64,000 nt of DNA from Haliotis rufescens (Eukaryota), in NCBI RefSeq assembly GCF_023055435.1, contig NW_025964372.1, positions 21,266,001-21,330,000 on the forward strand. The letters run 5' to 3'. A model generated the notes under the pieces. It ran no database searches, had not been told where the DNA came from, and saw only the letters and a list, made by a program, of their open reading frames with translations. The translations under genes were made by a program, and so were the position numbers. Every line of letters starts with the position of its first letter. Positions within the stretch are counted from its first letter, which is position 1. Positions 1,117-37,317 of the stretch are shown piece by piece.

Positions 1117-4100
1117 CTTTGCCTGTACTGCTAGATGGAACGCCCCCTTCTTGAAGGGCAGCAGGGATCCCCCGTGGTTCCTCTTTCCCTCGGGGAAGAT
1201 CCACACCTTGCACTGCAGAGGACATGAATTACATTGTCTTTATAGACTGTCACATCCATAATTGTCTCTGCATAAACATGCACTGTACTACATGTTCTGT
1301 GGCACTCATATGGGCTGCGGACGTGCCCTTGTACGTCAACCTCGACTGATAGCGTCTATGTACGTCAACCTCGACGACAGCGTCTCTTTACGTCAACCTC
1401 GACTACAGCGTTTATGTACGTCAACCTCGACTACAGCGTTTATATACGTCAACCTCGACTGCAGCGTTTATGTACGTCAACCTCGACTACAGCGTCTCTT
1501 TACGTCAACCTCGACTACAGCGTCTCTTTACGTCAACCTTGACTACAGCGTTTATGTACGTCAACCTCGACTACAGCGACTCTTTACGACAACCTCGACT
1601 GATGTCGTCTCTGTACGGCAACCTCAATTGATGGCGTCTCTGTACGGCAACCTCAACTGATGGCGTCTCTGTACGGCAACCTCAACTGATGGCGTCTCTG
1701 TACGTCACCCCGGACCTATAGCCTTTCTGCACCTTATCCCTGACCTACACTAGTTACGCGTTGACCTTGACCCACCTTGTCTCTGTTGATGATGTCAGCT
1801 GTCTTCGCCATGGTGGACATGGCTTTCTCCTTGTCCAGGCGGTCAATGAAAATGCCACCGCTCAACCATATCGCCAGTCCGAAAGGTCCTGCTGCGTACT
1901 TAATCTCCTTCTTTGCCAGACATGTACAATTCGGGGGCTTGATAACAGCCATTCCTGGGTGTACAAATATAACATCACGTCAGTAAGCACGTCATCCTAA
2001 ATGCGCCGCAATGCGCTGAGGAGGGTTGTGTCCCTTGGGCACGCCAGAAACCTATGATTGTTTCGCCCGGTTCGCTCCGAGTATGTTTCTAGGTTTGTCA
2101 GCACCACATCTGTGTTCGTGGGTTTCACCGAAGCGGTAAACATCAGTGACCAGCATCACTTCGAGTTTTCCTCCCACATCAAGCTGACACGCCGTGATAT
2201 AACTGGAATCAGAGACCATATACCGGTATATGGTCTTGCTGGAATACTGTTCGAAGCTGCGTTACACCCAACTCACTAAGCCACATCACCTAACACGCAT
2301 AATGATGATATTTTACGAGCGCTTTGTATTCTCATAAAATCATCCAGCTGGTTCAGAATACCTTGTTTCACCAACGTGTCACTCATCAATGAGATGTATT
2401 GAGATTTGTGATTCACCTATGATACCAAGGGTTATGTGCGAGTCCCTGAGACCCTGAGAGATCTGTGTCTCACACATAAGATCCAGGGAGATCTGATTCA
2501 CCTTTGAGATGTAAGGCGATCTGGCTCGCCCGTGAGATCTATGGAGATCTGACTCGCCCATGAGATCCAGGGAGATCTGACTCATCCATAAGACAGAGGG
2601 AGATCTGACTCGCCCGTGAGATCTATGGAGATCTGAGGTCTAGGGAGATCTGACTCACCCATGAGATCAAGGGAAATCTGAGACTCGCCAATGAGGTCTT
2701 GGGAGCCCTGACTCACCCATGAGTTGTGGAGAGATCTGACTCACCCATGGGATAATAGGAGCTCTGACTCACCCATTAGATCCAGGGAGCTCTGACTCAC
2801 CCATTAGATCCAAGGAGCTCTGGTGGTTGGACACTAGGATGTACGGTTCATCTGAACGGAGGTTCTCCTCATCAATCACTTCCGTATGGATACCAAACGC
2901 CTTCCGCACCAGGTTGAACGCTACAGCAGCATAACTGAAATATAGCATCCAGTTATAATAAAGAGTTATGTCAGAGTGATCTACAGCCTTTTAATACACA
3001 AACTCACTACTTATTGGTATAACAGATAACAAACACGCTATACCTGATACTACAGAGAACATACACTACCCACTGAGTGAATGAGTGAGTGAGTGGGCGA
3101 GTATTCAGCCGCATCTACCGAATGGTACATTTTACACTGTGTAACAGACACCACCCCCTTAAACACCAGGTAACAGACACTACCCCCTTATACCACAGGT
3201 AACAGACACTACCCCCTTATTCCACAGGTAACAGACGCTCCCCACTTATACACCAGGTAACAGACACTACCCCCTTATACCACAGGTAACAGACACTACC
3301 CCCTTATACCACAGGTAACAGGCGCTCCCCACTTATACACCAGGTAACAGACACAACCCCCTTATACACCAGGTAACAGACACTACCCCCTTATACCACA
3401 GGTAACAGACATTACCCCCTTATACCACAGGTAACAGACACTCCCCACTTATACACCAGGTAACAGACACGATCCCCTTATACACCAGGTAACAGACATT
3501 AACCCCCTTATACACCAGGTAACAGACACTACCCCCTTATACACCAGGTAACAGACACTACCCCCTTATACCACAGATAACAGACACTTCCCCCTTATAC
3601 CACAGGTAACAGACACTACCCCCTTATACCACAGGTAACAGACATTACCCCCTTATACCACAGGTAACAGACACTACCCCCTTATACACCAGGTAACAGA
3701 CACTACCCCCTTATACCACAGGTAACAGACACTACCCCCTTATACCACAGGTAACAGACACTACCCCCTTATACACCAGGTAACAGACACTACCCCCTTA
3801 TACCACAGGTAACATACGCTCCCCACTTATACACCAGGTAACAGTCACTAACGCCTCAAACCACAGGTAACAGACACTCCCCACTTATACACCAGGTAAC
3901 AGACACTACCCCCTTATACCACAGGTAACAGACACTGCCCCCTTATACACCAGGTAAAAGACGCTCCCCACTTATACCACAGGTAACAGACACGACCCGC
4001 TAATACCAAAGGTAACAGGCACTCCCCACTTATACACCAGGTAACAGACACTTCCCCCTTATACCACAGGAAACAGACACTCCCCACTTATACACCAGGT

Positions 4101-9896: not shown

Positions 9897-9930
<34 letters not shown>

Positions 9931-10103
9931 CACCTTTTCACCTCACCAAGTATCTTACTTAGTACACCATTTTTGAAATGCCTCCCAAGCAAGTTATAAA
10001 TAGCAAAATACAATTCTATAAATCAAAACCCCTTAACTTTGTTTTAAAGATGGTTGTTTTAAGCGAATAATCAATACAAAACTATTTGATGACGGGAAGT
10101 TTG

Positions 10104-10109
10104 TTTATT
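10104..10109 (-). promoter_or_regulatory. Probable polyadenylation signal of paralog B
   Basis: AATAAA on the minus strand about 140 nt after the stop codon. Confidence 0.55.
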
Positions 10110-10248
10110 CTATACACATATGTACACTAAGACCTTGACCTTGTGCAGTGCACATGACGCCTCGTAACTATAACATTACGCACGATGTTCACCGCCACAA
10201 GGTACGTGGCAATGTCAAAGGTTGTCAATATCACGTCGCATAACGTTG

Positions 10249-13200
10249 CTATGACGTCGTTTTGTTGTAAACATCCAGCATCCGTTGTCGTATATCTTCA
10301 GTGAGGGCCCCGACGTCGTCCTCAGTCAACCCTGCGGTGGAGACCGGCGGCAGTGCAGTGATGGTGAAACGTCCTGTGGAATATATACACCCTCGAAAGT
10401 CGTCGATGATGTCAATCAACACACATAAATAGTCATCGCATACACACACACATAAAACTAGCACATATATACAGTAAATTACGTTTATAACGAACACGCT
10501 TATAACGAACTGACGGATATAACCAACTGTGTTTGGTCCTGTCCGTTTGCTCTATATATTCCGTACATTTGCTTTTGTCGTACTCCGGTTATAACGAATT
10601 AAAATTAGTGGTCCCTTTGAGTTCGTTATAACCGTAGTTTACTGTAGAGGTTATCACGCGAGTGTCTTTTGGGATAATGACAATAACCAGACATTTGTAT
10701 AGCGCTAGAATCCAGTTAAAGCAATTGCTCGAAAGCGCTTAAGGAGACAACATTCCACTGGATACATAACAGCAATTGTGACTATGTGAAATCGTGATGA
10801 TGGCCGAACATATAACACAGGCCCGGGAAGAACTAATCGTATTGTTTGATATTAAGCCTCTGTGAAAAGGTCAGTCAACTGTGCCTTGAATTTTTCTGCT
10901 CCTTAAAGGGGAAGTGTACACGCAAAAATCACTTTCTTTCTTTTTCTAAACAAAACGCAATTTTAGAATTAGTTAGTATCTGTGTTTGAAAATATACACT
11001 CATTTTTTTTCACAGTGAAAGTAGGAAGCTCACAATAGTGTTAAAATGATATGCCGTTATGAGGCCTTCGTTTTACGAGCGAAATAGGCCTGAGTTATCC
11101 CCCTTAGATTATGACGTAATTGGTGCCAATTAAACTGGGTCCCTGTCTATTCTCAACGCAAAAGATATCAAGGACCAGTTTGCGGTAAAACAACATGGTC
11201 TACGCCACACTCCGGCGCAGTGGTGACTCAGCATAACACAATTCTGGCTGGCATCTGAGACGCTAGAATCACAAAACTGTACCTACACCACCTGGAGCGG
11301 CTCTAACAAAGCATGATGACGTCATAATGTTTATCAATTGGCACCAATGACGTCATATTGCAAGGGGCATAAGCCATGGTGTTTTTGTTATGGAAATAGA
11401 ACACTTGGTAAATGTGAAAAATATAAATCGTTTTAATGCAAAAAATATGTTAATTAAATATGATGTTTTTATATTTTTGTCTATGACACTTCTATGTTAA
11501 CACTTTTAATGTGGAAAAAGTACAAGAAAAATTGGTTCATTTCCGTGTGAACTTGCCCTTTAATGTTGGCTGGGATAGAGCAAGGGATCTGCTCTTGAGA
11601 AACAATGGTCACCAGACGTATTGAGAGGACACAAAGAAGATGTTGGCCATTTCATGTCAAGGCTCTGGTTGACGTATACTCCTGAACGAGCTCCAGGAGG
11701 TAGAGTGAAGAAAGGCCATGTCATGTTTTGAACACCAGCATGGGGATCTTGAACTTTATTCTGCCAATAGGTCTTGTAAGACGGGACTTATATGGTGACA
11801 TTTTCTTGTTTTTTGGACAAGTAGCCAGGATGTGACAAAACACATGGCTCTACCAAAGTGGCAACTGTCTTGGTGATAATCAACTTTCTAATTTGGCCGA
11901 AGTTCCTGATGTTGTAGTGTGCCCTTATGGTGTTTGACACAGAGCTTAGAAACAAGTGAAACATCACATCCAGGTCTCCGGCTTCCAGGTCTCTGGGTCC
12001 CATGACCAAGCCCCGAATCCCGACCCTGAGAGTGTTGCCCCGTGAAGATCCGGGGTCTTCAGCAACCCACGCTTGCCGAAGGAGGCGACTATGCTTGTCG
12101 TAAGAGGCGACTAACGGGATCGGATGGTCAGGCTCCCTGACTTGGTTGATGCATGTCATCGTATCCCAATTGCGCAGATCAATGCTGATGATGTCAGTCA
12201 CTGGATTGTCCGGTTAAGACTCGAATATTTACAAACCGACGTCGTATAGCTAGAATATTGCTGGGTACGGCGTTAAACAATAAACAAACAAACAAACTGT
12301 CTGAGAGGTGGGAGTATTAATTCGTCTGGCTGACATTGAGCATATGATGAGTGACCGATGTGTCCGAGCAATATCTCCCAGAGGTGTAGTGTAAATAGTC
12401 GTAGTCCGGTCCTAGTACAGCTCCTTTAGCCATCCTATAAATATCCCATACTAGGAATAAACACTGTACTTATACAGCCTTGTCGTGATAACCTCCATCT
12501 AAATCACATAATGTTATTCTTAAATCCCATTATAGAAAACGTATCTCGCAAATGATACTTTCCCCACACTTACAACAGGTCACAGTCATCCTGTGAGACA
12601 CACAGAAAGACACATTTATATTGTGGGACACACACATACACATACACGCACACGCACATATATGTATACACGCACGCATGCACACACACACAAACGCACA
12701 CACAAGGACACAGCCACGCTGTGGGACACACACTACTCACCTGCATCAAGCCGTTTCTTCTTCTCGTAGAAATGATAGCCCGAAAACACCACGGGGACAA
12801 CTGGTACCTGTCACAGAACAAACATGCAGATTACCCCGGTGACCGCTCACTGCCCTGTACATATATTAAATATACCTGTACTGCTTCCCTGTAAAAGTAC
12901 TGCTTACCCATATCTCATCTGTGATCTACTGCTTCCCCATATCTCATCTGTGATCTACTGCTTACCCATATCTCGTCTGTGATCTACTGCTTCCCCATAT
13001 CTCATCTGTGATCTACTGCTTCCCCATATCTCGTCTGTGATCTACTGCTTCCCCATATCTCACCTGTGATCTACTGCTTCCCCACATCTCGTCTGTGCTT
13101 GTACTGTGACCACATGTCTCACCTGTGCTTGTACTGTTTCCCTGTATCTCACCTGTACTTGTACTGTGGCCACATGTCTCACCACATATCTCACTTGTCC

Positions 13201-16200
13201 TTGTACTGTGACCACATCTCTCACTTGTGCTTGTACTGTGACCACATGTCTCACATGTGATTGTACTGTGACCACATATCTCACCTGTGCTTGTACTGTG
13301 ACCACATGTATCACCTGTGCTTGTACTGTGACCACATGTCTCACCTGTGCTTATACTGTGATCACATGTCTCACCTGTGCTTGTACTGTGACCACATGTC
13401 TCACCTGTGCTTGTAGTGTGACCACACATCTCACCTGTGCTTGTACTGTGACCACATGTCTCACCTGTGCTTGTACTGTGACCACATGTCTCACCTGTGC
13501 TTATACTGTGACCACATGTCTCACCTGTGCTTGTAGTGTGACCACATATCTCACCTGTGCTTGTACTGTGACCACATGTCTCACCTGTAATTGTACTGTT
13601 TCTCAATATCTCACCAGTGCTTGTAGTGTGACCACGTGTCTCAACTGTGCTTGTACTGTTTCTCCATATCTCACCTGTACTTGTACTGTTTCTCCATATC
13701 TCACCTGTGCTTGTACTGTGACCACATGTCTCACCTGTGCTTATACTGTTTCTCCATATCTCACCTGTGCTTGTAGTGTGACCACATGTCTCACCTGTGC
13801 TTATACTATAACCACATGTCTCACCTGTGCTTGTACTGTGACCACATGTCTCACCTGTACTTGTACTGTTTCTCCATATCTCACCTGTGCTTGTAGTGTG
13901 ACCACATGTCTCACCTGTGCTTGTACTGTTTCCCCACATCTCATCTGTGCTTGTACTGTTTCTCCATATCTCACCTGTACTTGTTCTGTTTCTCCATATC
14001 TCACCTGTGCTTGTAGTGTGACCACATGTCTCACCTGTGCTTGTACTGTTTTCCCGCATCTTATCTGTGCTTGTACTGCTTCCCCATATCTCACCCGTGC
14101 TTGTGCTACTTCCCCCTGCCTCACCTGTACTTGTGATGTGGTCTCACATCTCACCTGTGCTTGAACTGCTAGGTGAAATGCTCCCTTCTTAAATGGTTGC
14201 AGTCCTTTCTTGGGGTTGCGTTTTCCTTCAGGGAAAATCCAGACAATGACCTAAAAAAACAACTAAATGGTCAGCGAATGATTAATTTACAGCATATTCT
14301 TCCTCTTGATGGTGCGAGAGTTAGGGCGAGTGAGGAATAACGCATGTTGATATCACCAGACACACGTTCTTCCTCTTGGCGGTGTGAGGGCTAGGGTGAG
14401 TGAGGGATAGCGCATGTTGATGTCACCAGACATACATTCTTCCTATTGACGGTGTGAGGGCTAGGGTGAGTGAAGGATAACGCATGTTGATGTCACCAGA
14501 CATACATTCTTCCTCTTGACGATGTGAGGGCTAGGGTGAGTGAGGGATAACGCATGTTGATGTCACCAGACATACATTCTTCCTCTTGACGGTGTGAGGG
14601 CTAGGGTGAGTGAAGGATAACGCATGTTGATGTCACCAGACATACATTCTTCCTCTTGACGGTGTGAGGGCTAGGGTGAGTGAGGGATAGCGCATGTTGA
14701 TGTCACCAGACATACATTCTTCCTCTTGATGGTGTGAGGGTTTGGGTGAGTGAGGGATAACGCATGTTGATGTCACCAGACACACATTCTTCCTCTTGAT
14801 GGTGTGAGGGTTAGGATGAGTGAGGGATAACGCACGTTGATGTCACCACACACACATTCTTCCTCTTAATGCTGTGAGGGTTAGGGTGAATGAGGGATAA
14901 CGCACGTTGATGTCACCAGACACACATTCTTCCTCTTGACGATGTGAGGGGCAGGGTGAGTGAGGGATAACGCAATTTGATGTCACCGTACACACATTCT
15001 TCCTCTTGACGGTGTGAGGGTCAGGGTGAGTGAGGGATACCACGTGTTGATGTCACCAGACACACGTTCTTCCTCTTGATGGTTGAGGGTTAGGGTGAGT
15101 TAGGGATAGCGCATGTTGATGTCACCAGACACACATTCTTCCTCTTGACGGTGTGAGGGTCAGGGTGTGTGAGGGGTAACGCACGTTGACGTAACCGAAC
15201 TGACACAGTACTCACATTCTTCCTCTTGATGGTGCTCGCGGTGTTGACCATGGTGGAGATGGCGCTTTCGTGGTGCATGCGGTCGATGAAGATGCAACCA
15301 CACAGCCAACACGCAAGGCCGAACGGGCCGGCATACAGCAGCTCCTTCTTCGCAAGGAAGGTACACCTGCGGGGAATCATCATGCTCACACCTGCAATAC
15401 AAGAACACAGCATCAACTAGCTCACACCTGTAATACAAGAACACAGCATCACCTAGCTCACACCTGTAATACATTTACACAGCATCACCTAGCTCACACA
15501 TGCAATACATTTACACAGCATCACCTAGCTCACACCTGTAATACATTTACACAGAATCACCAAGCTCACACCTGCAATACAGGTACACAGCATCACCTAG
15601 CTCACACCTGCGATACAAGTACACAGCATCACCTAGCTCACACCTGCAATACAAGAACACAGCATCACCTAGCTCACACCTGCAATACAAGTACACAGCA
15701 TCACCTAGCTCACACCTGCAATACATGTACACAGCATCACCTAGCTCACACCTGCAATACAAGTACACAGCATCACCTAGTTCACACCTGCAATACAAGT
15801 ACATAGCATCACCTAGCTCACACCTGTAATACATTTACACAGCATCACCTAGCTCACACCTGCAATACAAGTACACAGCATCACCTAGCTCACACCTGCA
15901 ATACATGTACACAGCATCACCTAGCTCACACCTGCAATACAAGTACACAGCATCACCTAGCTTACACCTGCAATACAAGTACACATCATCACCTAGCTCA
16001 CACCTGTAATACATTTAAAAAGCATCACCTAGCTCACACCTGTAATACATTTACACAGCATCACCTAGCTCACACCTGCAATACATTTACATAGCATCAC
16101 CTAGCTCACACCTGTAATACATTTACACAGCATCACCTAGCTCACACCTGCAATACAAGTACACAGCATCACCTAGCTCACACCTGCAATACAAGTACAC

Positions 16201-19200
16201 AGCATCACTAAGCTCACACCTGCAATACAAGTACACATCATCACCTAGCTCACACCTGTAATACATTTAAAAAGCATCACCTAGCTCACACCTGTAATAC
16301 ATTTACACAGCATCACCTAGCTCACACCTGCAATACAAGTACACAGCATCACCTAGCTCACACCTGCCACACAAGTACACAGCATCACCTAGCTCACACC
16401 TGCAATACAAGTACACAGCATCACCTAGCTCACACCTGCAATACAAATACACAGCATCACCTAGCTCACACCTGCAATACATTTACACAGCATCACCTAG
16501 CTCACACCTGCAACACAAGTACACAGCATCACCTAGCTCACACCTGCAATACAAATACACAGCATCACCTAGCTCACACCTGCAATACATTTACACAGCA
16601 TCACCTAGCTCACACCTGCAATACAAGTACACAGCATCACCTAGCTCACACCTGCAATACAAGTACACAGCATCACCTAGCTCACACCTGCAATACAAGT
16701 ACACAGCATCACCTAGCTCACACCTGCAATACATGTACACAGCATCACCTAGCTCACACCTGCAATACAAGTACACAGCATCACCTAGCTAACACCTGCA
16801 ATACAAGTACACAGCATCACCTAGCTCACACCTGCAATACAAGTGCACAGCATCACCTAGCTTACACCTGCAATACAAGTACACATCATCACCTAGCTCA
16901 CACCTGTAATACATTTAAAAAGCATCACCTAGCTCACACCTGTAATACATTTACACAGCATCACCTAGCTCACACCTGCAATACATTTACATAGCATCAC
17001 CTAGCTCACACCTGTAATACATTTACACAGCATCACCTAGCTCACACCTGCAATACAAGTACACAGCATCACCTAGCTCACACCTGCAATACAAGTACAC
17101 AGCATCACTAAGCTCACACCTGCAATACAAGTACACATCATCACCTAGCTCACACCTGTAATACATTTAAAAAGCATCACCTAGCTCACACCTGTAATAC
17201 ATTTACACAGCATCACCTAGCTCACACCTGCAATACAAGTACACAGCATCACCTAGCTCACACCTGCAACACAAGTACACAGCATCACCTAGCTCACACC
17301 TGCAATACAAGTACACAGCATCACCTAGCTCACACCTGCAATACAAATACACAGCATCACCTAGCTCACACCTGCAATACATTTACACAGCATCACCTAG
17401 CTCACACCTGCAACACAAGTACACAGCATCACCTAGCTCACACCTGCAATACAAATACACAGCATCACCTAGCTCACACCTGCAATACATTTACACAGCA
17501 TCACCTAGCTCACACCTGCAATACAAGTACACAGCATCACCTAGCTCACACCTGCAATACAAGTACACAGCATCACCTAGCTCACACCTGCAATACAAGT
17601 ACACAGCATCACCTAGCTCACACCTGCAATACATGTACACAGCATCACCTAGCTCACACCTGCAATACAAGTACACAGCATCACCTAGCTAACACCTGCA
17701 ATACAAGTACACAGCATCACCTAGCTCACACCTGCAATACAAGTACACAGCATCACCTAGCTGACACCTGTAATACATTTACACAGCATCACCTAGCTCA
17801 AACCTTAAATACAAGTACACAGCATCACTTGGCTCACACCTGTAATACATTTATACAGCATCACCTAGCTCACAACTTTTATACATTTACACAGCATCAC
17901 CTAGCTCACACCTGCAATACAAGTACACAGCGTCACCTAGCTCACACCTGCAATACATGTACACAGCATCACCTAGCTCACACCTGTAATACAAGTACAC
18001 AGCATCACTAAGCTCACACCTGCAATACAAGAACACAGCATCACTAAGCTCACACCTGCAATACCAGTACACAAGTACACAGCATCACCTTGCTCACACC
18101 TGCAACACAAGTACACAGCATCACCTAGCTCACACCTGTAATACAAGTACACAGCATCACCTAGCTCACACCTGTAATACCAGAACACAGCATCACCTAG
18201 GTCAAACCTTAAATACATGTACACAGCATCACCTAGCTCACACCTGTAATACAAGTATGCGGCATCACCTAGGTCAAACCTTAAATACATGTACACAGCA
18301 TCACCTAGCTCACACCTGTAATACAAGTATGCTGCATCACCTAGCTCACACCTGTAATACAAGTACACAGCATCACCTAGCTCATACCTGCAATACAAGA
18401 ACACAGCATCACCTAGCTCACACCTGTAATACAAGTACATAGCATCACCTAGCTCACACCTGCAATACAAGTATGCGGCATCACCTTGCTCACACCTGCA
18501 ACACAAGTACACAGCATCACCTAGCTCACACCTGCAATACAAGTACACAGCATCACCTAGCTCACACCTGTAATACAAGTACATAGCATCACCTAGCTCA
18601 CACCTGCAATACAAGTACACAGCATCACCTAGCTCACACCTGCAAAACAAGTACACAAGTACACAGCATCACCTTGCTCACTACTATAATACATTTACAC
18701 AGCATCACCTAGCTCACATCGGTAATACAAGTACACAGCATCAACTAGCTCACACCTTAATACATTTTCACAGTGACACAGCAATACAAGAATACAGTAT
18801 CACTTAGCTCAGACCTGTAATACATTTACAGTGACACATGGTTCACTCCAGCAATACTGACATCCATTACAGGATTAAAAACGAGGAAGTCTTCTGGACT
18901 AGATCGTATTACAAATGAATATCTAAACTCTTCAGCTTCAAAATTATTACCATTTCATACTAAATATTACACAGTTAACACACAGCCCTGACGGACTCAC
19001 GTGAACACTAAAACAGTTAACACACAGCCCTGATGGACTCACGTGAACACTGAAACAGTTAACACACAGTCCCGACGGACTCCACGTGAACACTGAAACA
19101 GTAAACACACAGCCCTGACGGACTCACGTGAACACTGAAACAGTTTACACACAGCCCTGACGGACTCACGTGAACACTGAAACAGTTAACACACAGCCCT

Positions 19201-22200
19201 GACGGACTCACGTGAACACTGAAACAGTTAACACACAGCCCTGACGGACTCACGTGAACACTGAAACAGTTAACACACAGTCCCGACGGACTCCACGTGA
19301 ACACTGAAACAGTAAACACACAGCCCTGACGGACTCACGTGAACACTGAAACAGTTTACACACAGCCCTGACGGACTCACGTGAACACTGAAACAGTTAA
19401 CGCACAGTCCTGACGGACTCCACGTGAACACTGAAACAGTTAACACACAGTCCTGACGGATTCACGTGAACACTGAAACAGTTAACACACAGTCCTTACG
19501 GACTCACGTGAACACTGAAACAGTTAACCCACAGCCCTGACGGACTCCACGTGAACACTGAAACAGTTAACACACAGCCCTGACGGACTCCACGTGGGCA
19601 TTGAAATAGTTAACACACAGCCCTGACGGACTCACGTGAACACTGAAACAGTTAACCCACAGCCCTGACGGACTCCACGTGGGCATTGAAATAGTTAACA
19701 CACAGCCCTGACGGACTCACGTGAACACTAAACTAATTAACACAAAGCCATAATAACAATAAAATGTATAATGTTGGAACTAAAACAAGATAAAAATCGA
19801 CTGTCTATTTCAAGTTTGAGCTTGGACAGTGGGCTTGGAATTTGGCGCGTTTCTATATCCGACTGATATGTCATATCTTTTGCGACACAATAGGCGATGC
19901 TTGAGTGAATGAGTGAGTTTTGAAAAGTATTCCAGTTATATCACGGCGTGTCAGCTTAATACTGAGGGGAAGGCCCGAATGGATGCATGTCTCAGATGTT
20001 TACCACTTTGGTGAAACCCACGAGCACGGGTAGGGTGCTGACAAAGCTAGAAACTAATCAGGGCAAACTGGGATTACAATCCACAAACATAGGTTCCTGA
20101 CGTGCCGAAGGGACGCAACTCTGCACAGCGCATTGCTGCGCCTCAGACGACATGGCCATGTGTGACCCTAAGCAATGCTTGAAATGTATGTAAGCAGGGT
20201 ATGAAACTCCCAAAAATTTCAGCTAGACCACAGGACTGGCTACCTGAAATACTTGCCAGCCCTGACCAAAACCTGCCTGCCCACTATAATCATATGTTTC
20301 TCTGAAGGGATGGGGATTGCATAATAACAGCTCTACAAACAACATACCATAATTCTTTGCAATAACATTACATATATTCCACTACAATGCGTGATATACT
20401 TTGAATGTAAATCACGACGCGGAAAATAAATGCTTGCTTCAGATTGCTTGCTCTTTTACAGAAAGTTCGTACATTTTGTTTTACCAGAAGTAGTATTTTA
20501 ATAGGGGAAATTATGTTTTCATTTTAAATTGGTTCAACAAAACTAAATTATAAATATTCTGATTAGTAAAACTAGTATCTCATTAGGTAAAGTATGTTTA
20601 CTCAAAATATTTATGATCTCTAAGACTCTATGTTCACAACATGTCTGTACGACTGCAAAACTTTTAACTAACTGTGATACCTGGTTTATCCACCGTAGCA
20701 AACCTTTATATCTTCACAGATGAGAAGAAATTACAATTTTATCAACAAGTAAAGAATTTTTATTATCTTTGATATATCTTATTAGAAAGGATACCCGCAC
20801 TATGGTGTAGAGTTAACATTTTGGGGAGTAATATACAATGTAGCGTAGCGCAACTGAGACCGGGAACCAGGTTTGTTGTGTAGGAAATTAATAGACCAAT
20901 CAGCGTGTGCGTCACACGGCGGAGAAGGGAGTTTTCCAGTCGTGTATATTGCACGGCATTGGTCCACTATTTGCACGATATCGTGTATACAGACGGTCCT
21001 TTTGTAGCATAAGCACATCGCTAAATTTTAGGTTGTCTAAAAGCTAACAGGGTTTCTTTTTGGTTACATTTTATCATTCATTATACATGTGAATTAATGC
21101 TCATCAACGGGAAATATTTAGAATATTTTCACATATGAAATATAAACCGACCATCGGGCAGGGAGATTTGAAAATCTGGCAGCCCGAGTTGAAATCACCC
21201 CGTCTCGGACGGTCGGGCAGGCAGGTATTTCGAACACTGATGTAAGTAACGTATAATGATGTAAAACAACAATGTTTGAGTATATACAGCTGCATACTTA
21301 TACATATTTCTTTAAATCAAGTCGAAAACCCTCTGAAAAACATTGGCTGCAACCCATGGCGCTTCAATCACTATCTTCACTAACACCACGCGTTCGCGTT
21401 TCATTTAGTCATGCAAGAATGGAAATAAAAATAATGTGTTTTCAATGTGGAGCTGAGCGTTCGGTTCTAAATTCAATTTATATCTACAGATAACCTAGGC
21501 AGTTAAGAAAACACAGTAGATTACCTCCTAAATGATTAAGGTAAGAAAATCCACGGTTTGACAAACTCTTACCCAGAAAGTCAAGATGGCGCCGGTGGGT
21601 AAACATTAGCAGAAATTTCTTAGGATTATGGGAATATTTTGGTGGTTTTTTTTATGTTAATTATCTAAAAGAGAAGCTATCTCTGGCGGTTGGACAACGC
21701 CTACATACACGCAGGATGTTAAAATATGCGTCTATCCGGTAGCCCGTGGCTTTTTTCTTTGCTTTCCTGCAAGTGAAAACAATCTGGCGACTGGCTAGCC
21801 TATTTTTCTTAGATTTGCCCCCTTCTAAAATAGAAAATTTTCGCTTGAAGAATAAGATCAAGTTCCAAAAGCAATAGTTCCTGTTATTCAGCTCTCGCGA
21901 TCTCGCTAGCTTTGTAGTTCAAACCTTTTTGAAACTTGAAATATTTCCCCTCTCTGCTACCAGATTTCTGCTTGTATTTGGAAGGGAAACTTAACTCTGA
22001 ATTTGACGAGTTAACAACTGTTTAGCTAGTCCGGCTTGTCAGTACTGATGACAAACTATTTCACACATCGCACTAACGAGTAAGTTGGACACAGCATACC
22101 TATGAAGTCGAGCGAGCTCTGGTGGTTAGACACGAGAATATAGGGCTTGTCTGACTCCAAGTTGTGCAGATCTCGCAACTCTGCACGGATCCCCAGCAAT

Positions 22201-24880
22201 AAAGAACAGACACCGAACGGTGGTATCAGATATCTGAAACACACGTAAATATACATAGTAGGTCTCAGTCCACAGCGTGAGCTATGTCGTCTAACATCAC
22301 TAGGTACACAGTACCAACACAACAATGCTCCATGCATAAAGTGATACACGTTCACGGCACATTTTTTCTCTTAGAAAATGTGAAAAACACGTGCCGCTTG
22401 GGAAGCCGAAACTACCCGTGCAATAAGAATATATAAATGATATGGACGACATGTCAGACAGTCAGTTACAGTTTTATTATGGCAGCGGTGGGATATAAAA
22501 AAAAATACTGATATATAACACCAAAAAAAACCCAACAACAAAAACCAAAAAGAAAGGCCACGACTGACACTCGAACAACGTGAGCAGGACCTGGGTATGA
22601 CACAGATTGGAGCCACCCATGCCCACATCGCTAACCTGATGCAACGTTAACGGACAGACCGGACAGACATCAGGCAGACAAACAACAGGCAGACCCAGGG
22701 TAACTACGCCCAATGAGACCGGTAATTGCGTGCTTTGCATTTCCGAAATCCATTCCTGATAGTGACGTCAACAGCGATGATTGCCTCTGTAGGGCATATA
22801 ATTAGTTGACAGACAGTGGCCAGGCCAGGAACAGGGGCTTACAGACATTACAGAGGACAGCGCAACATCATCGTCAGAGTTGGGCCTGGACTATACGTCG
22901 TTCGCGTTGACGTGACAGGCAGAGAGTCATCTTTACTGATGAAAGCCGGTTCTGTCTGTTCTGAACTGAAGGAAGACAGCGTGTTTACCGTCGAAGGTGA
23001 GTGAGTGAGTGAGTATGGTTTTACGCCGCTTTTAGCAATATTCCAGCAATATCACGGCGGGGGACACCACAAATGGGCTTCACACATTGTACCCATCTCG
23101 GGAATCGAACCCGGGTCTTCGGCGTGACGAGCGAACGCTTTAACCACTAGGCTACCCGACCGCCCCCCGTCGAAGGTGAGGACGAACGCCGGCATATGAC
23201 GTTCAGGAGGTAAGCTCCGTATGGAGGCGGGGGGTTTATTGTGTGAGGAGGAACTGGAGGGCAGGTGAGAACACCATTGGTCATCGTTAACGGAAATTTG
23301 ACAGCTCAGCGATACATTGGTGACATTCATCGCCCGATTGTCCTACCACTTCTACAACAGTTGCCACGCGGTGTCCTTGTCCATGGTGTCCATGATAACG
23401 CCAGACCCCATACAGCCCCAATAGTACAGAGCTTCCTTGCAGCCAACAACGTCAACGTGTTGCCGTGGCCTGCACGCTCCCCAGACATGCCCCCGATAGA
23501 ACACCTCTGGGATGCCATGGATCGTCGTGTTCAACAGCGACCAACCACATCCTCCAGCCAACCGACAAGAACTGATCAAAGCCCGACAAGAAGAATGGCG
23601 ACGTATCCCACGTGAGGTCATCAGATGATGAACCGGGGAGTTATTGCGTGTCTTGTAGCAGGGGAATGCCATACACGCTATTAATGTGACGTGTCATTGA
23701 ACGATTTGAGCGATTTTTAGATGTGTGTGCCCTTTGATTACGTTCTATCACACACATATCTCTACACACTCCATTCTATCACACACATTTCTCTATAAAC
23801 GTCATTCCATCACACACATATATCTACACACGCTACTCTATCACACACACACACACATATCTCTACACACGCTATTTTATCACATATAGATCTTTACACA
23901 CCCTATTTTTCACACACATATCTCTACACACGATATTGTATCACACATATCTCTACACACGCTACTCTATCACACACACATATCTCTACACACGCTATCC
24001 TTCACAAACATATCTCTACTCGTGCTATTCTATCCCACACATATCTCTACACACGTTATTCTATCCCACACATATCTCTACACACGTTATTCTATCCCAC
24101 ACATATCTCTACACACGTTATTCTATCCCACACATATCTCTACACACGTTATTCTATCACACACATATCTCTACACACGTTATTCTATCCCACACATATC
24201 TCTACACACGTTATTCTATCACACACATATCTCTACACACGTTATTCAATCACACACATATCTCTACACACGTTACTTTTTCACACACATATCTCTATTC
24301 GTGCTATTCTATCCCACAAGGGGGCACGGGTGGCCCATTCGTCTAAAGCGCCGCGATTCGCTGTGCAGAGTTGCGTCCCTTGGTCACGCCAGAAACCTAT
24401 GATTTTGGGTTCGAATCCCGGTTCGCCCCGATTATGTTCCTAGGTTTGTCGGCACCATACCCGTGCTCGTGGGTTTCACCGAAATGGTAAACGTCGGAGA
24501 CCTGCATCACCTCGGGCTTTCCTCCCACATTAAGCTGACACGCCGTGATATAACTGGAATACTGTTAAAAGCGGCGTTACAACCCAACTCACTCACTCTA
24601 TCACACACATAGTTCTCTACACGTGTTTTTCCATCACACACATATCTCTCTATACGCACTATACTATCCATCACAGATCTCTACACATATATCATAGAAT
24701 CATGGTTCACCTGAAGTTGTTGGCGTTACCGGGGCTGAGCAACGACAGCAACATCACCACGACAGCAGACGCCGACATAAACGTGTAGTACGTCAAGAAC
24801 TTCACAAACAGCTGGACCGTGGGCTTCAGTTTACACATCACCCACACCACGCCCAGCAGGCCCAAACCCACCAGCCACAT
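10249..24880 (-). CDS. AGPAT1/2: AGPAT1/2-like acyltransferase, paralog B, about 255 aa. Exons 24880-24711, 22233-22100, 15391-15216, 14250-14155, 12807-12741, 10373-10249
   Basis: Six exons (170+134+176+96+67+125=768 nt), all GT-AG and in frame to TAG. Motifs [24 protein letters not shown]; AATAAA on the minus strand at 10104-10109. Confidence 0.93.
10472..10644. mobile_element. Small TA-TSD MITE (pogo/Tigger-like)
   Basis: ta|cagtaaattacgtttataacgaac ... gttcgttataaccgtagtttactg|ta. Confidence 0.75.
10680..11960 (-). mobile_element. L2/CR1-type LINE 3' relic, interrupted by a TTAA element
   Basis: [26 protein letters not shown] resembles the L2 ORF2 C-terminus; tail-like tttgtatagcgc..gctcgaaagcgct at about 10695-10740. 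Confidence 0.55.
10907..11559. mobile_element. Non-autonomous DNA transposon with TTAA TSD (Kolobok-like)
   Basis: ttaa|aggggaagtgtacacg ... cgtgtgaacttgccct|ttaa; internal inverted repeat at about 11101-11135 and 11330-11368. Confidence 0.7.
12039..12297 (+). mobile_element. SINE family S3 with Nin-like core
   Basis: gcttgtcgtaagaggcgactaa core and (aaac)n tail; several copies in the window. Confidence 0.8.
12880..14168. repeat. 30-bp minisatellite (29-bp variant distally) derived from the paralog B exon-4 donor
   Basis: Unit tcacctgtgcttgtactgtgaccacatgtc; minus strand reads GTACAAGCACAG|gtgaga. Confidence 0.95.
14295..15234. repeat. 70-bp minisatellite derived from the paralog B exon-3 donor
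   Basis: Each unit carries acattcttcctcttga, i.e. TCAAGAGGAAGAAT|gt on the minus strand. Confidence 0.95.
15384..18835. repeat. 36-bp minisatellite derived from the paralog B exon-3 acceptor
   Basis: Unit gctcacacctgcaatacaagtacacagcatcaccta, about 95 copies. Confidence 0.96.
18970..19745. repeat. 42-bp minisatellite with CACGTG in each unit
   Basis: acagttaacacacagccctgacggactcacgtgaacactgaa. Confidence 0.93.
19902..20168 (-). mobile_element. SINE family S1
   Basis: Reverse-complement similarity to 24320-24598. Confidence 0.75.
20195..21239. mobile_element. hAT-like non-autonomous element (tentative)
   Basis: cagggtatgaaa ... tttcgaacactg imperfect TIRs flanked by atgtaag on both sides. 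Confidence 0.4.
22555..23683 (+). pseudogene. Degenerate Tc1-like transposase interrupted by a SINE (paralog B intron 1)
   Basis: RLTLEQREQ-like N-terminus, [10 protein letters not shown] at about 22930, [22 protein letters not shown] in ORF 23265-23615; contains stops and frameshifts. Confidence 0.85.
22997..23168 (-). mobile_element. Short tRNA-derived SINE (family S2), full length with TSD
   Basis: A box tagcctagtgg, B box ggttcgattcc, (actc)n tail; TSD ccgtcgaaggtgag. Confidence 0.88.
23742..24690. repeat. About 31-bp CA/TA-rich minisatellite interrupted by a SINE
   Basis: atcacacacatatctctacacacgttattct. Confidence 0.88.
24320..24598 (+). mobile_element. SINE family S1: tRNA-like head with long A-B box spacing, V-like core, (actc)n tail
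   Basis: tggcccattcgt A-like box, ggttcgaatcc B box, core gtgggtttcaccg..ttcctcccac; five copies in the window. Confidence 0.82.
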
Positions 24881-30678: not shown

Positions 30679-33600
30679 CTACTTGATGGTAGTTGTGACT
30701 CTGGGTTGACGTGACTCTAATGATGTTTGATTGAAGGCATCCAGCATTTGCTGCCTGACGTCCTCGGTGAGCCCCGCCACGTCGTCGTCCGTCCTGCCCG
30801 CTGTCCTCACGGGGGGAAGACATGTGATGATGAATTTACCTGGGACACACAATAACAATGACATGTCTTACGCTGCAACATTCCAGCTGTAAACAAGCAT
30901 GAAATACTCATATCCCCCGCAATTATGACATGTCCACCAGGCACCAGTTCACTACTAGACCTATCTATGCGCCACGTTTGGTGAAGAAATGTCATACGGT
31001 TTTCAAGATCTGCTCCATTTTCAGTCTAAGTCAAAGTCGTTGTCATGGAATCTCGAAATTTTTTATTTTTTTAAAATCCCAAACCATCAAAAGGCACCAG
31101 TTCACCACTAGACCTATCTATGTGCCAAATTTGGTAAAGATATCTCTCACAGTTTTTGTGTTCTGATCCATATAGTGCCCCTGACAAACTAGTGATTGAT
31201 ATCACGATCAGCAACATTGGGGTACGATTACACGCAATCAACCAAGTTACTGAACTGGCCACCTGATCCATATAGTGCCACCAACAAGCATAGGGACTTC
31301 ATTTATCAAGGTTGTTATATAAACATTATCATGAAGAATACCCGAGACCCATTTTATTTGACATATACTTACATTTGATTTGACAGAAACTTACATAAAG
31401 GTCAGGCCATTTAATTTGACGGAGACTTTATTTGATTCGAAGGAGCTTAGCACAAAGGTCAGGTCATTTATTTTGATAAATACTTACATATATAGTCGTC
31501 ATTTGATTTGACAGAGACTTGTAAACAAAACGGTCAGGTCATTGATTTAGTGGCTAAATACATAGAGGTCGTTTCATTTGATATAATGGCTACTTACATA
31601 AAGGTCAGGTCATGATTTAGTGGCTACTTACCTAAAGGGAGTTTTTATTTGATTTGACAGCTACTTACATAAAGGTCAGTTTATTTTAATGTACCCCAAA
31701 AAATCCCCTGTGGTACACACGAGTTACAGCAGGTGCAAATCCTCTAGCATCTATAATAAGCATGACATTGAGAACACTCCTTGCGACATAAGTCGAGGTT
31801 TGAGCAAACATTTACAGAGGTTCAAATTAGGCTCAAGATCAAGTTATATGATTAGAAACTGAAAATATCAAATAGAGGTTATCATGCGAGTGTGTTTGGG
31901 GATGGTAAATATCCTGCATTAGGAATAAACATTGTATTTAGCGAGCCTTGGCGAGCTAAATACATAGTGTTTATTCCTAATGCAGGATATTTACCATCCC
32001 CAAACACACAAGCGTGATAACCTCTTTATCATATAATGTCATTCTTTAATTCTGTGCTTCAAAATCGCTTTCCCTCTCTCACAAACAATACCGAAACATT
32101 GCAAGTTTTCCTGGAATGCGCGCATTAATATTTATTACGTCTGAGGGTAAGTGATGTGTCAGTCGGACAGTGACAGTAGCCAATATAGTTCCAACTGAAA
32201 TCTCTTTCTTATACAGTGGCGAAGCAACATATACGCAATGGGTGTTTTTAATTGCCTTTTGCGGCAATCCATCGGTCTGTCTGCTGGAGTAACTGCCCTT
32301 TGTCAAAGGGAAGCTACTCTAATCCTAGTCTATGAGACGTCACAGCCACGGTCAGACGTTGTTGACAGTCGGTCTGTCCTGTCCTGTTAAGAAGTGTAGT
32401 CAGATGTACACACAGCGACAAAACGAAACAAGGTAACAATTTAAACATATTTCAGCCAAATCCAACTCTTTTAATTTGTGGAGAAAGGTTCAAGCCGCAG
32501 AGGACTACAAGCACAGATATGGCTACTGATCCCACTTGGCTAGGCCTCGTGGCTTCGCAAAATTGTGTCGAAATTTATATCTTCAAAGTTGCCAAAACTT
32601 ATAAAATGCCTTAGCTACGTCACAGTTAGACACTGATTTTCAGTATATTAGACTGTTCTTTTGATAATGAAAGCAATTGTCTCTGTAGTTTCTCCAGATT
32701 CCCGATGGTTAATTCTGACTCGATCCCCAAATGACGAGGACAACGCCATGTTTGTTTATAAACAGTGAAAGTAGTCCCTACTTGACCTTTGATATTTGCA
32801 TCTCTATCCGCATATGACCCCAACGGATATCGTTTTCATCCGTTGGCTTTATCCTGCCGAGAAACCTACCCATTATATGATAAAGCAGATTACGTGTCAA
32901 ATCTCTTGTCATGTTTGCCTCCTAGTCTCTACTTACCTGTGTCAAATCTCTTGTCACGTTTGCTGTAGAAGTCCGAGTAGGAGGAGAAGACAACAGGTAC
33001 AACTGGAACCTACAATACAAGGAGAGTGGTAAACATGTTAAACACAAGCACAGATAAAACACAAGCAAAATGTACAACACAGAGTGTACAATACAAGCAG
33101 GGTACAAGACAGAGTGTGCAATACAAGCAGCGTGTACCGTATTTTCTTGAGTATAGTGCGCACCCATGTATAATGCGCACCCTCCTCTAGCAGGTTCAAT
33201 ATTTGGGAAAAAAAGAAATTTGAATATTCTGCGCAGAAAAAATTTACACTGTACCCTTTCAGCCAAGTCCAGCAAACAAATGGGTGCTGAGAAACTTCGT
33301 CAGTACAAATTCGAAATTTGAGATAAAAAATCACCAGACATGTTTATTTACCGTTTAAATAGTATTTATTGTTCTGCTAGGCATTGTTTTATATCTAGGG
33401 ATTAAGATTACCTCGTGTATTTTCTCGTAAACTAAGCCGGAAACAGCAATCAGCTGTACACACGTTTTCTTGGAATCGACTGGTGATTCGGTCAAGACAC
33501 ACCCAATGATATAACTTTATAGGATTTTTAATGCAAGGATCGGCAACAATTGTATCTGAAACTATTTTATTTATCAGGAATAATATATTCCATTATTTTC

Positions 33601-36600
33601 TTAATTATATGCAGTCTTTACTAAACATATTTAAAATAATAATAACCCTAAGCGAAGCAGCTGATCGCTATTCCCGGGTATTATTTTTTTACATGGAACA
33701 TGTCATTTATGATATATGTATCCATTCTCTGTCAACTAAAGTTCGTTTCAAGGCGTCAGTATCGGTATTCTGACCGTGGTTGCTGTTAATAACTGTGAGT
33801 TGTGCGATCTTCCGATCGCTTCACACACGATTTCGCCGAAATTAATAAAAACAATATTATAAGTAATTTTGAATAAAATTAATGAAATAAGTTACAAACA
33901 TGAGTCCAGATATACAAAGAACACTTTTTTTTACAGCCAGTGTAAGTACATGAATAATTTGCGAACTTCAGTATGGATTTGTTGACATGGTATTTCCGGT
34001 GTTACGTGCTCACAGTAATGTCTTTCCATGGGGGAAAAACATCAAAACTCATTCATTCGTGTATAATGCGCAACCCCTTCTACACAGCTGTGTTTTTTGG
34101 AAAATAAAAGTGCGCACTATACTCAAGAAAATACGGTAAATCACCAAGTGAACATTACAAGTGTGTGTACGTGTGTGTGAATACCCCTCTCAGACACAGT
34201 ATACAAACTTCAGCAGAGGTATTATGTCTACAGAGGAGGCAGATTCTCACCTGGGCCTGCACAGCGAGGTAGAAGGCGCCTTTCTTGAACGGTAAAATGG
34301 AGCCTGAATGGTTGCGGGTACCCTCAGGAAAAATGAACACTTTCACCTGTAAGAAGCAGAATAAACCTTTAGTTCATAGTTAGAAACAATGGTTAATCTC
34401 ATGTACTGAGAGAAGAGATATAAGTCTATGATTATACATCATCAGGGTCTCGTTACCAGTGAGTAAGTGAGTGAGTATGGTTTTGCGCCGCTTTTAGCAA
34501 TATTCCAGCAATATCATTGTGGGGAACATCAGAAATGGGCTTCACACATGATACCCATCTCGGGAATCGAACCCGGGTCTTCGGGATGATGAGCAAACGC
34601 TTTAACCACTAGGCTACCTGACCACTCCATCTTGTTACCAGAGTCTTCAACAGCATCTACGTTTCCAGACAGAGTCTGTGTCACCAGAGTCTATGTCATT
34701 AGAGTCTACATCACCAGCATCACCAGAGACTAGACCACCAGTCTACATTACCAGTCATTAGAGACTATGTCCCAAAATACTACATCACCAGAGTCTACGT
34801 CATTAGAGATTAGCACACCAGAGTTTTAGCTCTACATAAAGAGTCTACCAGAGTCTATGTGACCAGAGACAATGTCAGCAGGGTCTATGTCACCGGTGAT
34901 TATGTCAAAAGTATCTACTCCACCATAATCTATGTCACTTGTTTTCAGTGGTTTTTGTCACATATAATTTCATGCATCAGTCAGAGTGCCTGACATAGTG
35001 GACCCATCAGTTTTCATATTTACATTGTTTTTATTGATGAAGTCTGCAGTATCTTTGATTGTGCTGACAGCCCGGTCATGGTTGAGACGATCAATGAAAA
35101 CTGTTCCACACAGCCATGCTGCCAGTCCAAATGGCCCAGTGTACATCAGCTCCTTCTTAGCCAAGCTGGTACAACGTGACGGCCATATCTCCATCATACC
35201 TGCAACACAGTCAGCTTACAGCTGTGGCACAAGTCAAAATACTTCCTCCATTCAGCATATGTTCAGTTACAGGAAGGAATTCAAGTCATCATATGTCCTC
35301 CATTCATCCACCTCCATGGGTAATATAAGTAGACATAGAGTCATATACCCTTGGAATACAAGGACATACGGGGAGTTATACAATATTATACAAGGAATAA
35401 TGCAAAGGCTTACAATTACATGGGGTAAAGCAAGGACACACAGTGAGTAATAGTGTGTGTTTTTGTTGTTTGACGCCGCACACAGCATTATCATGATTAT
35501 TCCAGCTATATGACCAGATGACAGCAGTCTGTAAATAATCAAGTCTGGACCAGACAATCCACTGATTGGCATCATGAGCATTTATCTACATAATTGGGAA
35601 AAAATGACATGCACCAACCGAGTAAGCATGTCTAACAATCTGATTCCATTAGTTGCTTCTTACAACAAGTATAGTCATCTTTTACGACAAGCATGGGTTG
35701 CTGAAGACCTATCCCACCCCAGATCTTCACGGGTTACAGGAGTTATATATAGGGTAATACAAAATACAAGGACATACAGGGAGTTATACACAGGTAATAC
35801 AAAGACATACAGGGAGTTATACATGGGTAATACAAGGACATACAGGGAGTTATACACGGGTAATACAAAGACATACAGGGAGTTATACACGGGTAATACA
35901 AAGACATACAGGGAGTTATACACGGGTAATACAAGGACATACAGGGAGTTATACACGGGTAATACAAAGACATACAGGGAGTTATACACGGGTAATACAA
36001 AGACATACAGGGAGTTATACACGGGTAATACAAAGACATACAGGGAGTTATACACGGGTAATACAAGGACATACAGGGAGTTATACACGGGTAATACAAA
36101 GACATACAGGGAGTTATACACGGGTAATACAAGGACATACAGGGAGTTATACACAGGTAATACAAAGACATACAGGGAGTTACACATGGGTAATACAAGG
36201 ACATACAGGGAGTTATACACGGGTAATACAAAGACATACAGGGAGTTATACACGGGTAATACAAGGACATACAGGGAGTTATACACGGGTAATACAAAGA
36301 CATACAGGGAGTTACACATGGGTAATACAAGGACATACAGGGATTTATACACAGGTAAAACAAGGACATATCTAACGGTAATAGATGACTCACCAAAGAA
36401 GTCAAGAGAGCTCTGATGGTTGGACACCAGGATGAAAGGTTTATCTGACTCAAGGTTTTCTTTTCCTCGGAGTTCGATCTCAATTCCAAACAACTTTCGG
36501 ATGTTCTTGATAGCAGAGCTGACATACCTATCAAACACACACATCACATATCTTTATAATGTACAATAAAACACATCTGTGTTTTAATCGACATGGGACA

Positions 36601-37317
36601 ATCTCATTAATATCAGATCTTTCTCTTGACATCTCCCTAGCCAGGGCAGGTGTTACGATTTATGTTGCAGGGTACACACACACCCTTCACCTTCGAACCC
36701 CTTCATTGTATATTTGCAGTGTATACACACACACACATACACATACACACACGCACATTCGTTATATATATTGCTAGGTACACACACAAATCATTTATGT
36801 AGGTCAGGGTTAGGGCAACCTTACATCCCAACACAGGAAAAAATTGAAGCAGCCGTTACGGGTGAAAATCTTTCCTCGGTCTATTCCTGCCCGGACTAAA
36901 TTTCCAGCTGAACTGATCATCGTTAATACAATCACGCCCTCAGGTGCGCTAACAGTGTCCTCGGCGATAAGCTAATGTAGGAAGACTTGTCGAGTGTTGC
37001 AAACATTGCTATAGAGTAGGTCTCCAAATTCATGAAAGGAAAACAAGGAAATTTTGAGTGAAGTCGTCGCACACAAAACACCTCATTTTGTTATCGTCTG
37101 CTGCGTTCAGATGTAAACATTCATTGGCTAACCTGTAATTCGTGACATCCTTCGCTCGTGGAAGACTCAGGAAAATCACAATGAATGCCAAAACATTCAC
37201 AATGACATAGTAGAAGAAGAACTTGGCATAATACTTGAACGTGCTGTTCAGCTCGTACAGAATGGGTAGTATCAACAAGAATCCGATGACAACCCACTGC
37301 AATACGTCCAGCGCCAT
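30679..37317 (-). CDS. AGPAT1/2: AGPAT1/2-like acyltransferase, paralog C (canonical), about 274 aa. Exons 37317-37133, 36527-36394, 35199-35024, 34346-34251, 33009-32937, 30839-30679
   Basis: Six exons (185+134+176+96+73+161=825 nt), GT-AG, in frame. Motifs [33 protein letters not shown]. Confidence 0.95.
30892..31298. mobile_element. Helitron/HINE-like non-autonomous element (tentative)
   Basis: Starts aacaag; duplicated internal block caccagttcac..agacctatctatg..tttggt; gatccatatagtgcc repeated near the end. Confidence 0.4.
31874..32885. mobile_element. Element with a long terminal hairpin plus a short inverted repeat (Crypton-like non-autonomous architecture, tentative)
   Basis: Hairpin 31874-32025 with about 70-bp arms; ctttatcatataatg (32024-32038) is inverted at 32871-32885. 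Confidence 0.55.
33137..34136. mobile_element. 1.0 kb Tc1/mariner-superfamily MITE, probably young
   Basis: Perfect 27-bp TIRs ccgtattttcttgagtatagtgcgcac / gtgcgcactatactcaagaaaatacgg with TA on both sides. Confidence 0.88.
34458..34624 (-). mobile_element. tRNA-derived SINE, family S2
   Basis: Similar to 22997-23168; TSD-like tctYgttaccag. Confidence 0.85.
35455..35733 (-). mobile_element. SINE family S3
   Basis: Reverse-complement similarity to 12039-12297; inserted in the 33-bp array. Confidence 0.75.
35735..36372. repeat. 33-bp minisatellite in paralog C intron 2 (degenerate copies continue at 35270-35445)
   Basis: tacacgggtaatacaaagacatacagggagtta. Confidence 0.94.

Follow-up and report, generated by a model that had tools for sequence, protein, structure and literature searches.

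We find that the long 36-bp repeat preceding exon 3 of an abalone AGPAT-like gene of lipid synthesis is, with a probability of about 0.78, an array of tandem copies of that gene's own intron-2/exon-3 boundary (a "mirage"), likely neutral, whose 94 copies are likely ignored by the spliceosome since only the last site of the series precedes a full exon. Most likely it is a repeat that the gene tolerates, of the kind described in lancelets, not a device that lowers expression, and position next to a full exon is likely what decides the choice of acceptor.

The array lies in a 64,000-nucleotide stretch of the Haliotis rufescens genome (contig NW_025964372.1), referred to here as the window, to which all coordinates apply. 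The host gene, AGPAT-B, is on the minus strand, with the coding part of exon 1 at 24711..24880, exon 2 (134 nt, with a phase-1 donor and ending at 22100) at 22100..22233, exon 3 (176 nt; acceptor 15391, donor 15216) at 15216..15391, exon 4 (96 nt) at 14155..14250, exon 5 at 12741..12807, and the coding part of exon 6, through the stop, at 10249..10373. This model is identical at 255/255 residues to H. rufescens XP_048245620.1, and the gene structure proposed in an earlier sequence-only reading of the same DNA is supported, as are the phase of intron 2 (phase 1) and the end of exon 2 at 22100 proposed there. H. rufescens, H. cracherodii, and H. asinina all have a full-length 255-aa ortholog with a collinear exon-3 start. 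Because the collinear GVAMMIP is present in H. asinina, we rejected the possibility that the array has invaded the start of the exon.

The array occupies 15392..18838 on the minus strand and parses into 94 decoy units upstream of the true acceptor at 15391, so the approximately 95 sites described by the sequence-only reading are real. TRF assigns it a period of 36, 93.5 copies, and 91% matches over 15384-18764, to which a degenerate 59-bp tail adds the remainder up to 18838; the far end as a whole (18683-18838) is degenerate. Each unit consists of approximately 28 nt from the 3' end of intron 2 and the first 8 nt of exon 3, i.e. it spans the junction, and the splice dinucleotide is widely retained among the decoys (AG in 92/94, YAG in 87/94, YAG|GT in 86/94). 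The spacing is mostly 36 nt, with two 44-nt spacings and one 59-nt spacing disrupting the register, and the 90 regular units fall into 37 distinct types. Because a 900-bp duplicate is present within it (a recent copy of a 25-unit block, 15932..17731, minus strand, with 2-6 mismatches per 900 nt vs ~78 for random unit pairs), we conclude that the array grew by block copying. Its 95 near-identical sites all go back to a single founder unit. The array thus has the features of a mirage: it is head-to-tail and minisatellite-like, its unit spans a junction, and many but not all units carry the splice dinucleotide. It also has those of concerted evolution, in the 25-unit block copy, a true unit that is unique over 25 nt, and degenerate units at the far end.

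The authentic acceptor region (15392..15416, minus strand) matches the decoy consensus at 23 of 25 intron positions and at the first 8 exon bases. The two exceptions are at -25 and -13, where the T of the true site is replaced by a purine in the decoy consensus; the T at -25 creates a yTnAy branch-like word with its A at -22. Exact matches to the true site are found in three decoys over the last 18 nt and in none over the last 25 nt, and the TTCTT variant of the true site recurs in only 4 of the 87 YAG decoys, in agreement with the earlier claim that the true site is slightly better than its copies. In pyrimidine count the decoys (7-12, mode 10) and the real acceptors (8-13) overlap; weakness of the decoys themselves is thus not enough to account for their silence, which points to position. 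The locus does, as claimed, offer a natural test of how an acceptor is chosen: the site that is used comes after 87 decoys no weaker than many real acceptors. The branch word was rejected as a full explanation, as yTnAy is found at -18..-30 in only ~7 of 18 real acceptors; moreover, it is not exclusive to the true site (2 of 92 decoys also have it). The T-to-purine changes at -25 and -13 could reflect selection weakening the decoys; as two events, they are not significant. A unit extending further, over exon positions +9..+19, is less likely than a chance likeness, with 5/11 positions differing there vs 2/33 elsewhere.

Contigs of all three RNA-like runs examined (X1, X2, and X10) join exon 2 to 15391 and show exon 3 correctly joined at either end, so regular splicing of the main mRNA, the product to which these contigs speak, is undisturbed. 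X1 and X2 come from two studies of one organism (A) and X10 from another (C). Their RNA nature is our guess, none being recorded as RNA; 14 such runs match part of the stretch, and the three examined all contain spliced contigs. The raw-read entries listed were miRNA libraries. Among these three we found no contig joining exon 2 to a decoy, contigs being prone to drop rare or NMD-cleared forms, and, in X1 and X2, no array-like contig with a loose end of exon 2; the aligned stretch covered only 59 nt of the array. Low-level leakage to the decoys, cleared by NMD, would therefore be compatible with these data. Array-like units are also found in X2 and in X19, a run with another organism label, where some carry the TAG discussed below. 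X19 is without cover at ~15343-15383, leaving its 36-bp units unbridged to exon 3, and other loci may be the source of some array-like pieces in this run (7 differences and 3 gaps in 47 nt); its summed depth was not taken as a copy number.

Five further junction-spanning arrays, with mixed frame outcomes, are present in the window. Two are donor mirages in AGPAT-B itself (minus strand): a 70-bp repeat behind exon 3 (14296..15196; ~13 copies, 12 GT decoys), which is bridged to exon 3 in X19, and a 30-bp repeat behind exon 4 (12897..14168), in which 28 of 29 GT decoys are in frame and 8 are both in frame and stop-free. AGPAT-B therefore contains three mirages, two of them flanking exon 3. A 28-bp donor mirage lies behind exon 2 of AGPAT paralog C (2469..2822, minus strand), and a Methyltransf_22 gene on the plus strand has two, a 62-bp repeat behind its predicted first exon (50825..51446) and a 41-bp repeat behind exon 5 (56606..57428). 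Paralog A (30679..37317, minus strand) has junction-spanning arrays at 0 of 10 splice sites, and nothing similar was found at the counterpart of the exon-3 acceptor in paralogs A and C. In total, 6 of 37 splice sites in the window have such arrays, and of the 26 intragenic arrays, 6 cross a junction where ~1.2 would be expected, approximately 5-fold above a hand-built null that assumes uniform nucleation, for four genes in one window. TRF arrays occupy 53% of the window, and the higher GC content of exons (51% vs 41%) could bias the enrichment. An excess of this size implies that simple neutrality is insufficient without a mutational bias.

What would follow from the use of a decoy can be predicted from the frame. 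When the decoys are joined in silico to exon 2, all 87 YAG decoys lead to a premature stop within 27 codons, as the sequence-only reading had anticipated; TAG is at codon 3 in 84/94 decoys, and the stop is immediate in 78 of the 87 YAG decoys (77 TAG, 1 TAA). That reading attributed the stop to a period that is a multiple of three, which we reject: the frame begins anew from exon 2 at every decoy, so the stop is independent of the period, which affects the outcome in just the 9 decoys whose stop is not immediate. It is highly improbable, in our view, that the array is a selected device, kept because its in-frame TAG feeds NMD and so tunes AGPAT-B. The prevalence of immediate stops and the TAG-bearing units in X19, under another organism label, would fit such a role; however, because the near-identical sites are copies of one founder, the stop counts as one event, not 78, and its prior chance was ~40% (had the window's 18 real acceptors been copied in a 36-nt unit of the same layout, 8 would carry a stop in frame; among 486 layout variants, 200 do, 41%). 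The TAG probably came with the original intron, where it stood at -28..-26, and was inherited once with the founder. Judged by column variability, its conservation does not exceed that of the rest of the unit (its three columns each vary in 4 of 90 regular units, the median column in 3), and with the recent block copy left out, the stop is missing from 7 of 64 units. The stop-free, in-frame decoys of the sister array at the exon-4 donor, the lack of a counterpart at this acceptor in paralogs A and C, and the transcription of the gene with splicing to 15391 and no decoy isoform among the contigs of the three RNA-like runs likewise weigh against it. The proposal of a built-in poison array attenuating the gene in proportion to its length is thus unsupported.

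An unselected quantitative leak is also unlikely: the decoys would take a measurable share of exon-2 splicing, NMD would clear the products, and array length would, as a by-product, become a cis-eQTL for AGPAT-B. The YAG decoys, with pyrimidine counts like those of real acceptors, could sustain such a leak, and products that all end in a premature stop would be invisible in contigs; against this, the three RNA-like runs yielded no exon-2-to-decoy contig, the pseudo-sites of human F7 are silent even in frame (PMC1557585), and amphioxus mirages gave normal RT-PCR products (PMC3087553). A self-correcting ladder, in which a decoy splice rebuilds a donor (TAG|GTGTGA) that is re-spliced to 15391 and leaves the mRNA traceless, is very unlikely. 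YAG|GTGTGA occurs in 79/94 decoys, and the rebuilt donor scores 2.5 vs 3.2 for the native exon-2 donor (real donors, 0.2 to 8.8, on a crude matrix from only 18 window donors), but AG|GT is common in the window (9 of 18 real acceptors) and derives here from a split Gly codon, the true junction rebuilds the same site and yet exon 3 is retained in contigs, and the exon junction complex (EJC) is reported to repress re-splicing (PMC8184009, PMC6224609). Finally, the near identity of the 900-bp block pair (2-6 mismatches) might suggest that the copy number is largely an assembly artefact. This is extremely unlikely given the diversity of unit types, the recurrence of an internal variant carried by 4 window units in an independent contig of X1, and the array-like units in X2 and X19; any doubt about the assembly is limited, at most, to the block duplicate.

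For the mirage that we favor, a plausible history would begin with one small duplication across the junction, perhaps aided by a partial likeness of the intron end to exon positions +9..+19, followed by expansion through slippage or unequal exchange. At the true acceptor, U1 bound at the 15216 donor would stabilize U2AF and U2 across the 176-nt exon (exon definition), as would exonic sequence that the decoys lack. Splicing to a decoy would yield either a longer exon (212, 248, 284 nt, and more) or a pseudo-exon of 11 nt. Against its nearest neighbors, the true site is likely helped by a slightly better branch-like word and pyrimidine tract. Rare mis-splicing would yield an NMD target, making the array cheaper to tolerate; this would not be its purpose.

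As a tolerated mirage, the array is of modest importance: it adds a mollusc to the lancelets in which such structures have been described, and its copies far outnumber those of the lancelet globins. The donor mirage on the other side of exon 3, together with the series of decoys, makes exon definition directly testable, and the local junction excess, if genome-wide, would bear on why minisatellites start at exon edges. A more far-reaching scenario, which we consider improbable, is that decoys are used at a real rate with an outcome (NMD after TAG, or rescue by re-splicing) that scales with copy number, making a hypervariable mirage a heritable dial on a lipid enzyme in abalone, and that splice junctions are preferred sites of mirage nucleation in this genome. 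If such nucleation were true, it would suggest a splicing- or exon-linked mutational process widespread in marine invertebrates, and should leakage scale with length, arrays of this type would amount to expression variants that have been overlooked in farmed abalone.

In poison exons and other regulated AS-NMD systems, the premature stop lies well upstream of later junctions, as it would after use of an abalone decoy; the abalone array differs in having no isoform seen in contigs, no sign of selection on the stop, and no paralog counterpart. It resembles recursive-splicing ratchet points and RS-exons in that the acceptor is directly followed by GT, but the rebuilt donor is only middling and the AG|GT is inherited from the exon start (compare PMC8605326, PMC6224609). 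The human F7 IVS7 VNTR, with a 37-bp unit, is closer: in both cases a unit of 36-37 bp extends across an exon boundary and only the exon-adjacent site is used, and in F7 the pseudo-sites are silent even when in frame and stop codons did not explain the choice, for which 5'-to-3' scanning was proposed (PMC1557585). However, F7 is a donor-side case with 5-9 copies and identical sites, whereas the abalone acceptor used is the last of 95, so that first-come scanning from the 5' end of the intron cannot explain its choice. In the open-access literature, we found neither a mollusc mirage nor an acceptor-side VNTR case.

The closest likeness is to the amphioxus mirages, described in Adh3, troponin C, the globins BflGb6 and BflGb9, and PGBD5, with normal RT-PCR products and no splicing defects (PMC3087553, PMC3902484, the source of the amphioxus comparisons that follow). 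Both are minisatellite-like tandem copies of an intron/exon boundary with AG/GT in many but not all units, and the abalone unit of 36 bp is within the 10-72 bp reported for amphioxus Adh3. In both, the boundary units are unlike a homogenized interior, mRNA splicing is normal, and acceptor as well as donor boundaries are hit. Length differences between haplotypes or cells are a further mark of mirages as a class; the contigs set against the abalone array were short and collapsed. The abalone differs in being a gastropod mollusc, not a cephalochordate, in having 94 units vs 3-6 in BflGb6, and in having three mirages in a single gene, two of them around one exon.

Three AGPAT-like genes (PF01553) lie in tandem on the minus strand of the window, in the order C, B, A (1-37317); its plus strand encodes a Methyltransf_22 gene. 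Broken reading frames at ~62400-63350 (+), recognised by their motifs, are presumably those of a Tc1/mariner-like transposase. Tandem arrays called by TRF make up 53% of the window, and PMC6905558 describes a length-polymorphic intronic minisatellite in another abalone gene. The six exons of gene B lie at 24880-24711, 22233-22100, 15391-15216 (exon 3, 176 nt), 14250-14155, 12807-12741 and 10373-10249, all on the minus strand, and encode a 255-aa product identical to Haliotis rufescens XP_048245620.1 (255/255), with 249/255 and 208/255 identities to H. cracherodii and H. asinina, respectively. This paralog is divergent, sharing ~55% identity with the A type, and all of its close matches come from Haliotis. 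The H. rubra B model, of 151 aa, takes the exon-3 Met as its start, which may reflect a break in the gene model at the array-bearing intron. A 35-37 bp array (24911-25382, minus) starts ~30 nt upstream of the gene B start codon, likely in its 5' UTR or promoter.

TRF and unit parsing place the 36-bp array of the exon-3 acceptor at 15384-18838 (minus), with 94 decoy copies preceding the true acceptor (15391), just as the sequence-only reading had described this repeat. The AG is kept in 92/94 decoys and YAG in 87/94; among the latter, the third codon is a stop in 78, and translation in silico ends within 27 codons for all 87. The boundary unit is distinct: the decoy consensus mismatches it at -25, at -13 and from +9 onward, three decoys are identical to it over 18 nt and none over 25 nt, and a yTnAy word whose A falls at -31 to -18 is present at the true site and in 2/92 decoys. 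The true site has 11 pyrimidines at -20 to -4, within the 8-13 spanned by the window's 18 real acceptors, and the decoys have 7-12 (10 in 54/92); accordingly, the true site is slightly better than its copies, yet the copies match many working acceptors. A block of 25 units is present twice, with 2-6 mismatches per 900 nt versus ~78 expected for random units, a sign that the array grew recently through the copying of blocks. Three of the four decoys closest to the true site (15463-15535, minus) belong to a purine-rich variant, and one lacks the AG, which could reflect local selection or chance clustering. Just upstream of the 36-bp array, a 42-bp array (18971-19749, minus) has units with an acceptor-like word followed 7-8 nt on by a donor-like word, an arrangement that, as read from sequence, resembles a micro-exon ladder.

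We compared contigs from four of the 24 runs listed (X1 and X2, two studies of organism A; X10, organism C; X19, organism D) over 15115-15450. Contigs of X1, X2 and X10 span exon 3 and extend into exon 2 on the acceptor side and exon 4 on the donor side; therefore, gene B is transcribed, with both true sites in use in the assembled form. Exon-2 sequence is absent from the array-like contigs of X1 (138 nt) and X2 (66 nt). X19 contains a contig joining exon 3 to a 70-bp array at the exon-3 donor, as well as 36-bp-like units with the TAG, unbridged to the exon. Because assembly into contigs drops rare forms and NMD would thin decoy products, these data portray the main product only.

The sequence-only reading took the in-frame TAGs for a built-in poison-acceptor array that could attenuate gene B through NMD, and attributed the stop to a phase-1 intron and a period that is a multiple of 3. 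The period is not what creates the stop, and since the 94 units stem from one founder, the stop is a single event. When 8 exon and 28 intron bases were copied in simulation at each real acceptor of the window, an in-frame stop arose at 8/18, and nearby layouts gave one in 200/486. Among the 90 regular units (four irregular units excluded), each of the three TAG columns has 4 variant units, against a column median of 3; with the duplicate block removed, the variants number 4, 3 and 3 among 64 units (median 1.5), and the stop is lost in 7/64. In the 30-bp array at the exon-4 donor of gene B (12897-14168, minus), which stays open in frame for 117 codons, 28/29 GT decoys keep the frame, 8 of them free of stops as well; products of these 8 would not be removed by NMD, yet ortholog proteins have no insertion at this position. 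A selected poison device is unlikely. Attenuation by the decoys is unsupported, a low-level effect being compatible with contigs that miss rare or NMD-thinned forms.

Junction-spanning arrays occur at 6/37 splice sites of the four genes. Besides the exon-3 acceptor and the exon-4 donor of gene B, they lie at the exon-3 donor of gene B (70 bp, 14296-15196, minus), which gives exon 3 decoys on both flanks, at the paralog C exon-2 donor (2469-2822, minus) and at two donors of the Methyltransf_22 gene (50825-51446 and 56606-57428, plus); the first of these, a 62-bp array, has 9 copies within two mismatches of the donor region. Among intragenic TRF arrays with a period of at least 10, 6/26 span a junction versus 1.2 expected (P ~0.001), or 5/25 versus 1.16 without the focal array (P ~0.005), an excess that is a lead only, given a crude null of uniform placement, a single window and more GC-rich exons. 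A two-copy 30-bp repeat (33061-33130, minus), left out of this count, lies ~50 nt upstream of the paralog A exon-5 acceptor and resembles its pyrimidine tract; it is possibly a decayed mirage, as minisatellites made of a copied intron/exon boundary are termed.

The 36-bp array probably began with a duplication spanning the intron 2/exon 3 junction, which was presumably tolerated since a full exon was left in place. Which acceptor is used likely follows exon definition, a general principle of splicing: the last acceptor alone would pair with the donor at 15216 to define a 176-nt exon, and the decoys next in line would make exons of 212, 248 and 284 nt. Alternatively, in a recursive rescue, exon 2 could be spliced to a decoy, rebuilding a donor that is then re-spliced. 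On a matrix built from 18 donors, the rebuilt site reaches 2.5 and the native donor 3.2, and the word of the rebuilt site is retained by 79/94 units. However, AG|GT is found at 9/18 real acceptors of the window, and exon 3 stays in the mRNA even though its junction with exon 2 recreates this donor.

Exon definition is also treated in the human F7 study (PMC1557585), where the choice of site in IVS7 is left unexplained by stop codons; IVS7 is the donor-side counterpart of the abalone acceptor array. PMC3087553 defines the amphioxus mirages as intron/exon boundaries duplicated in the manner of minisatellites, in which the AG/GT is often retained, regular splicing is undisturbed, length varies and boundary units stay outside homogenisation; PMC3902484 adds PGBD5 and troponin C. 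Of the six defining features, the five that the data can address are shared by the abalone array; the sixth is length variation. Our searches of the open-access literature yielded no mollusc mirage. The abalone array is real and belongs to this already described class, adding a mollusc example to the mirages of amphioxus.
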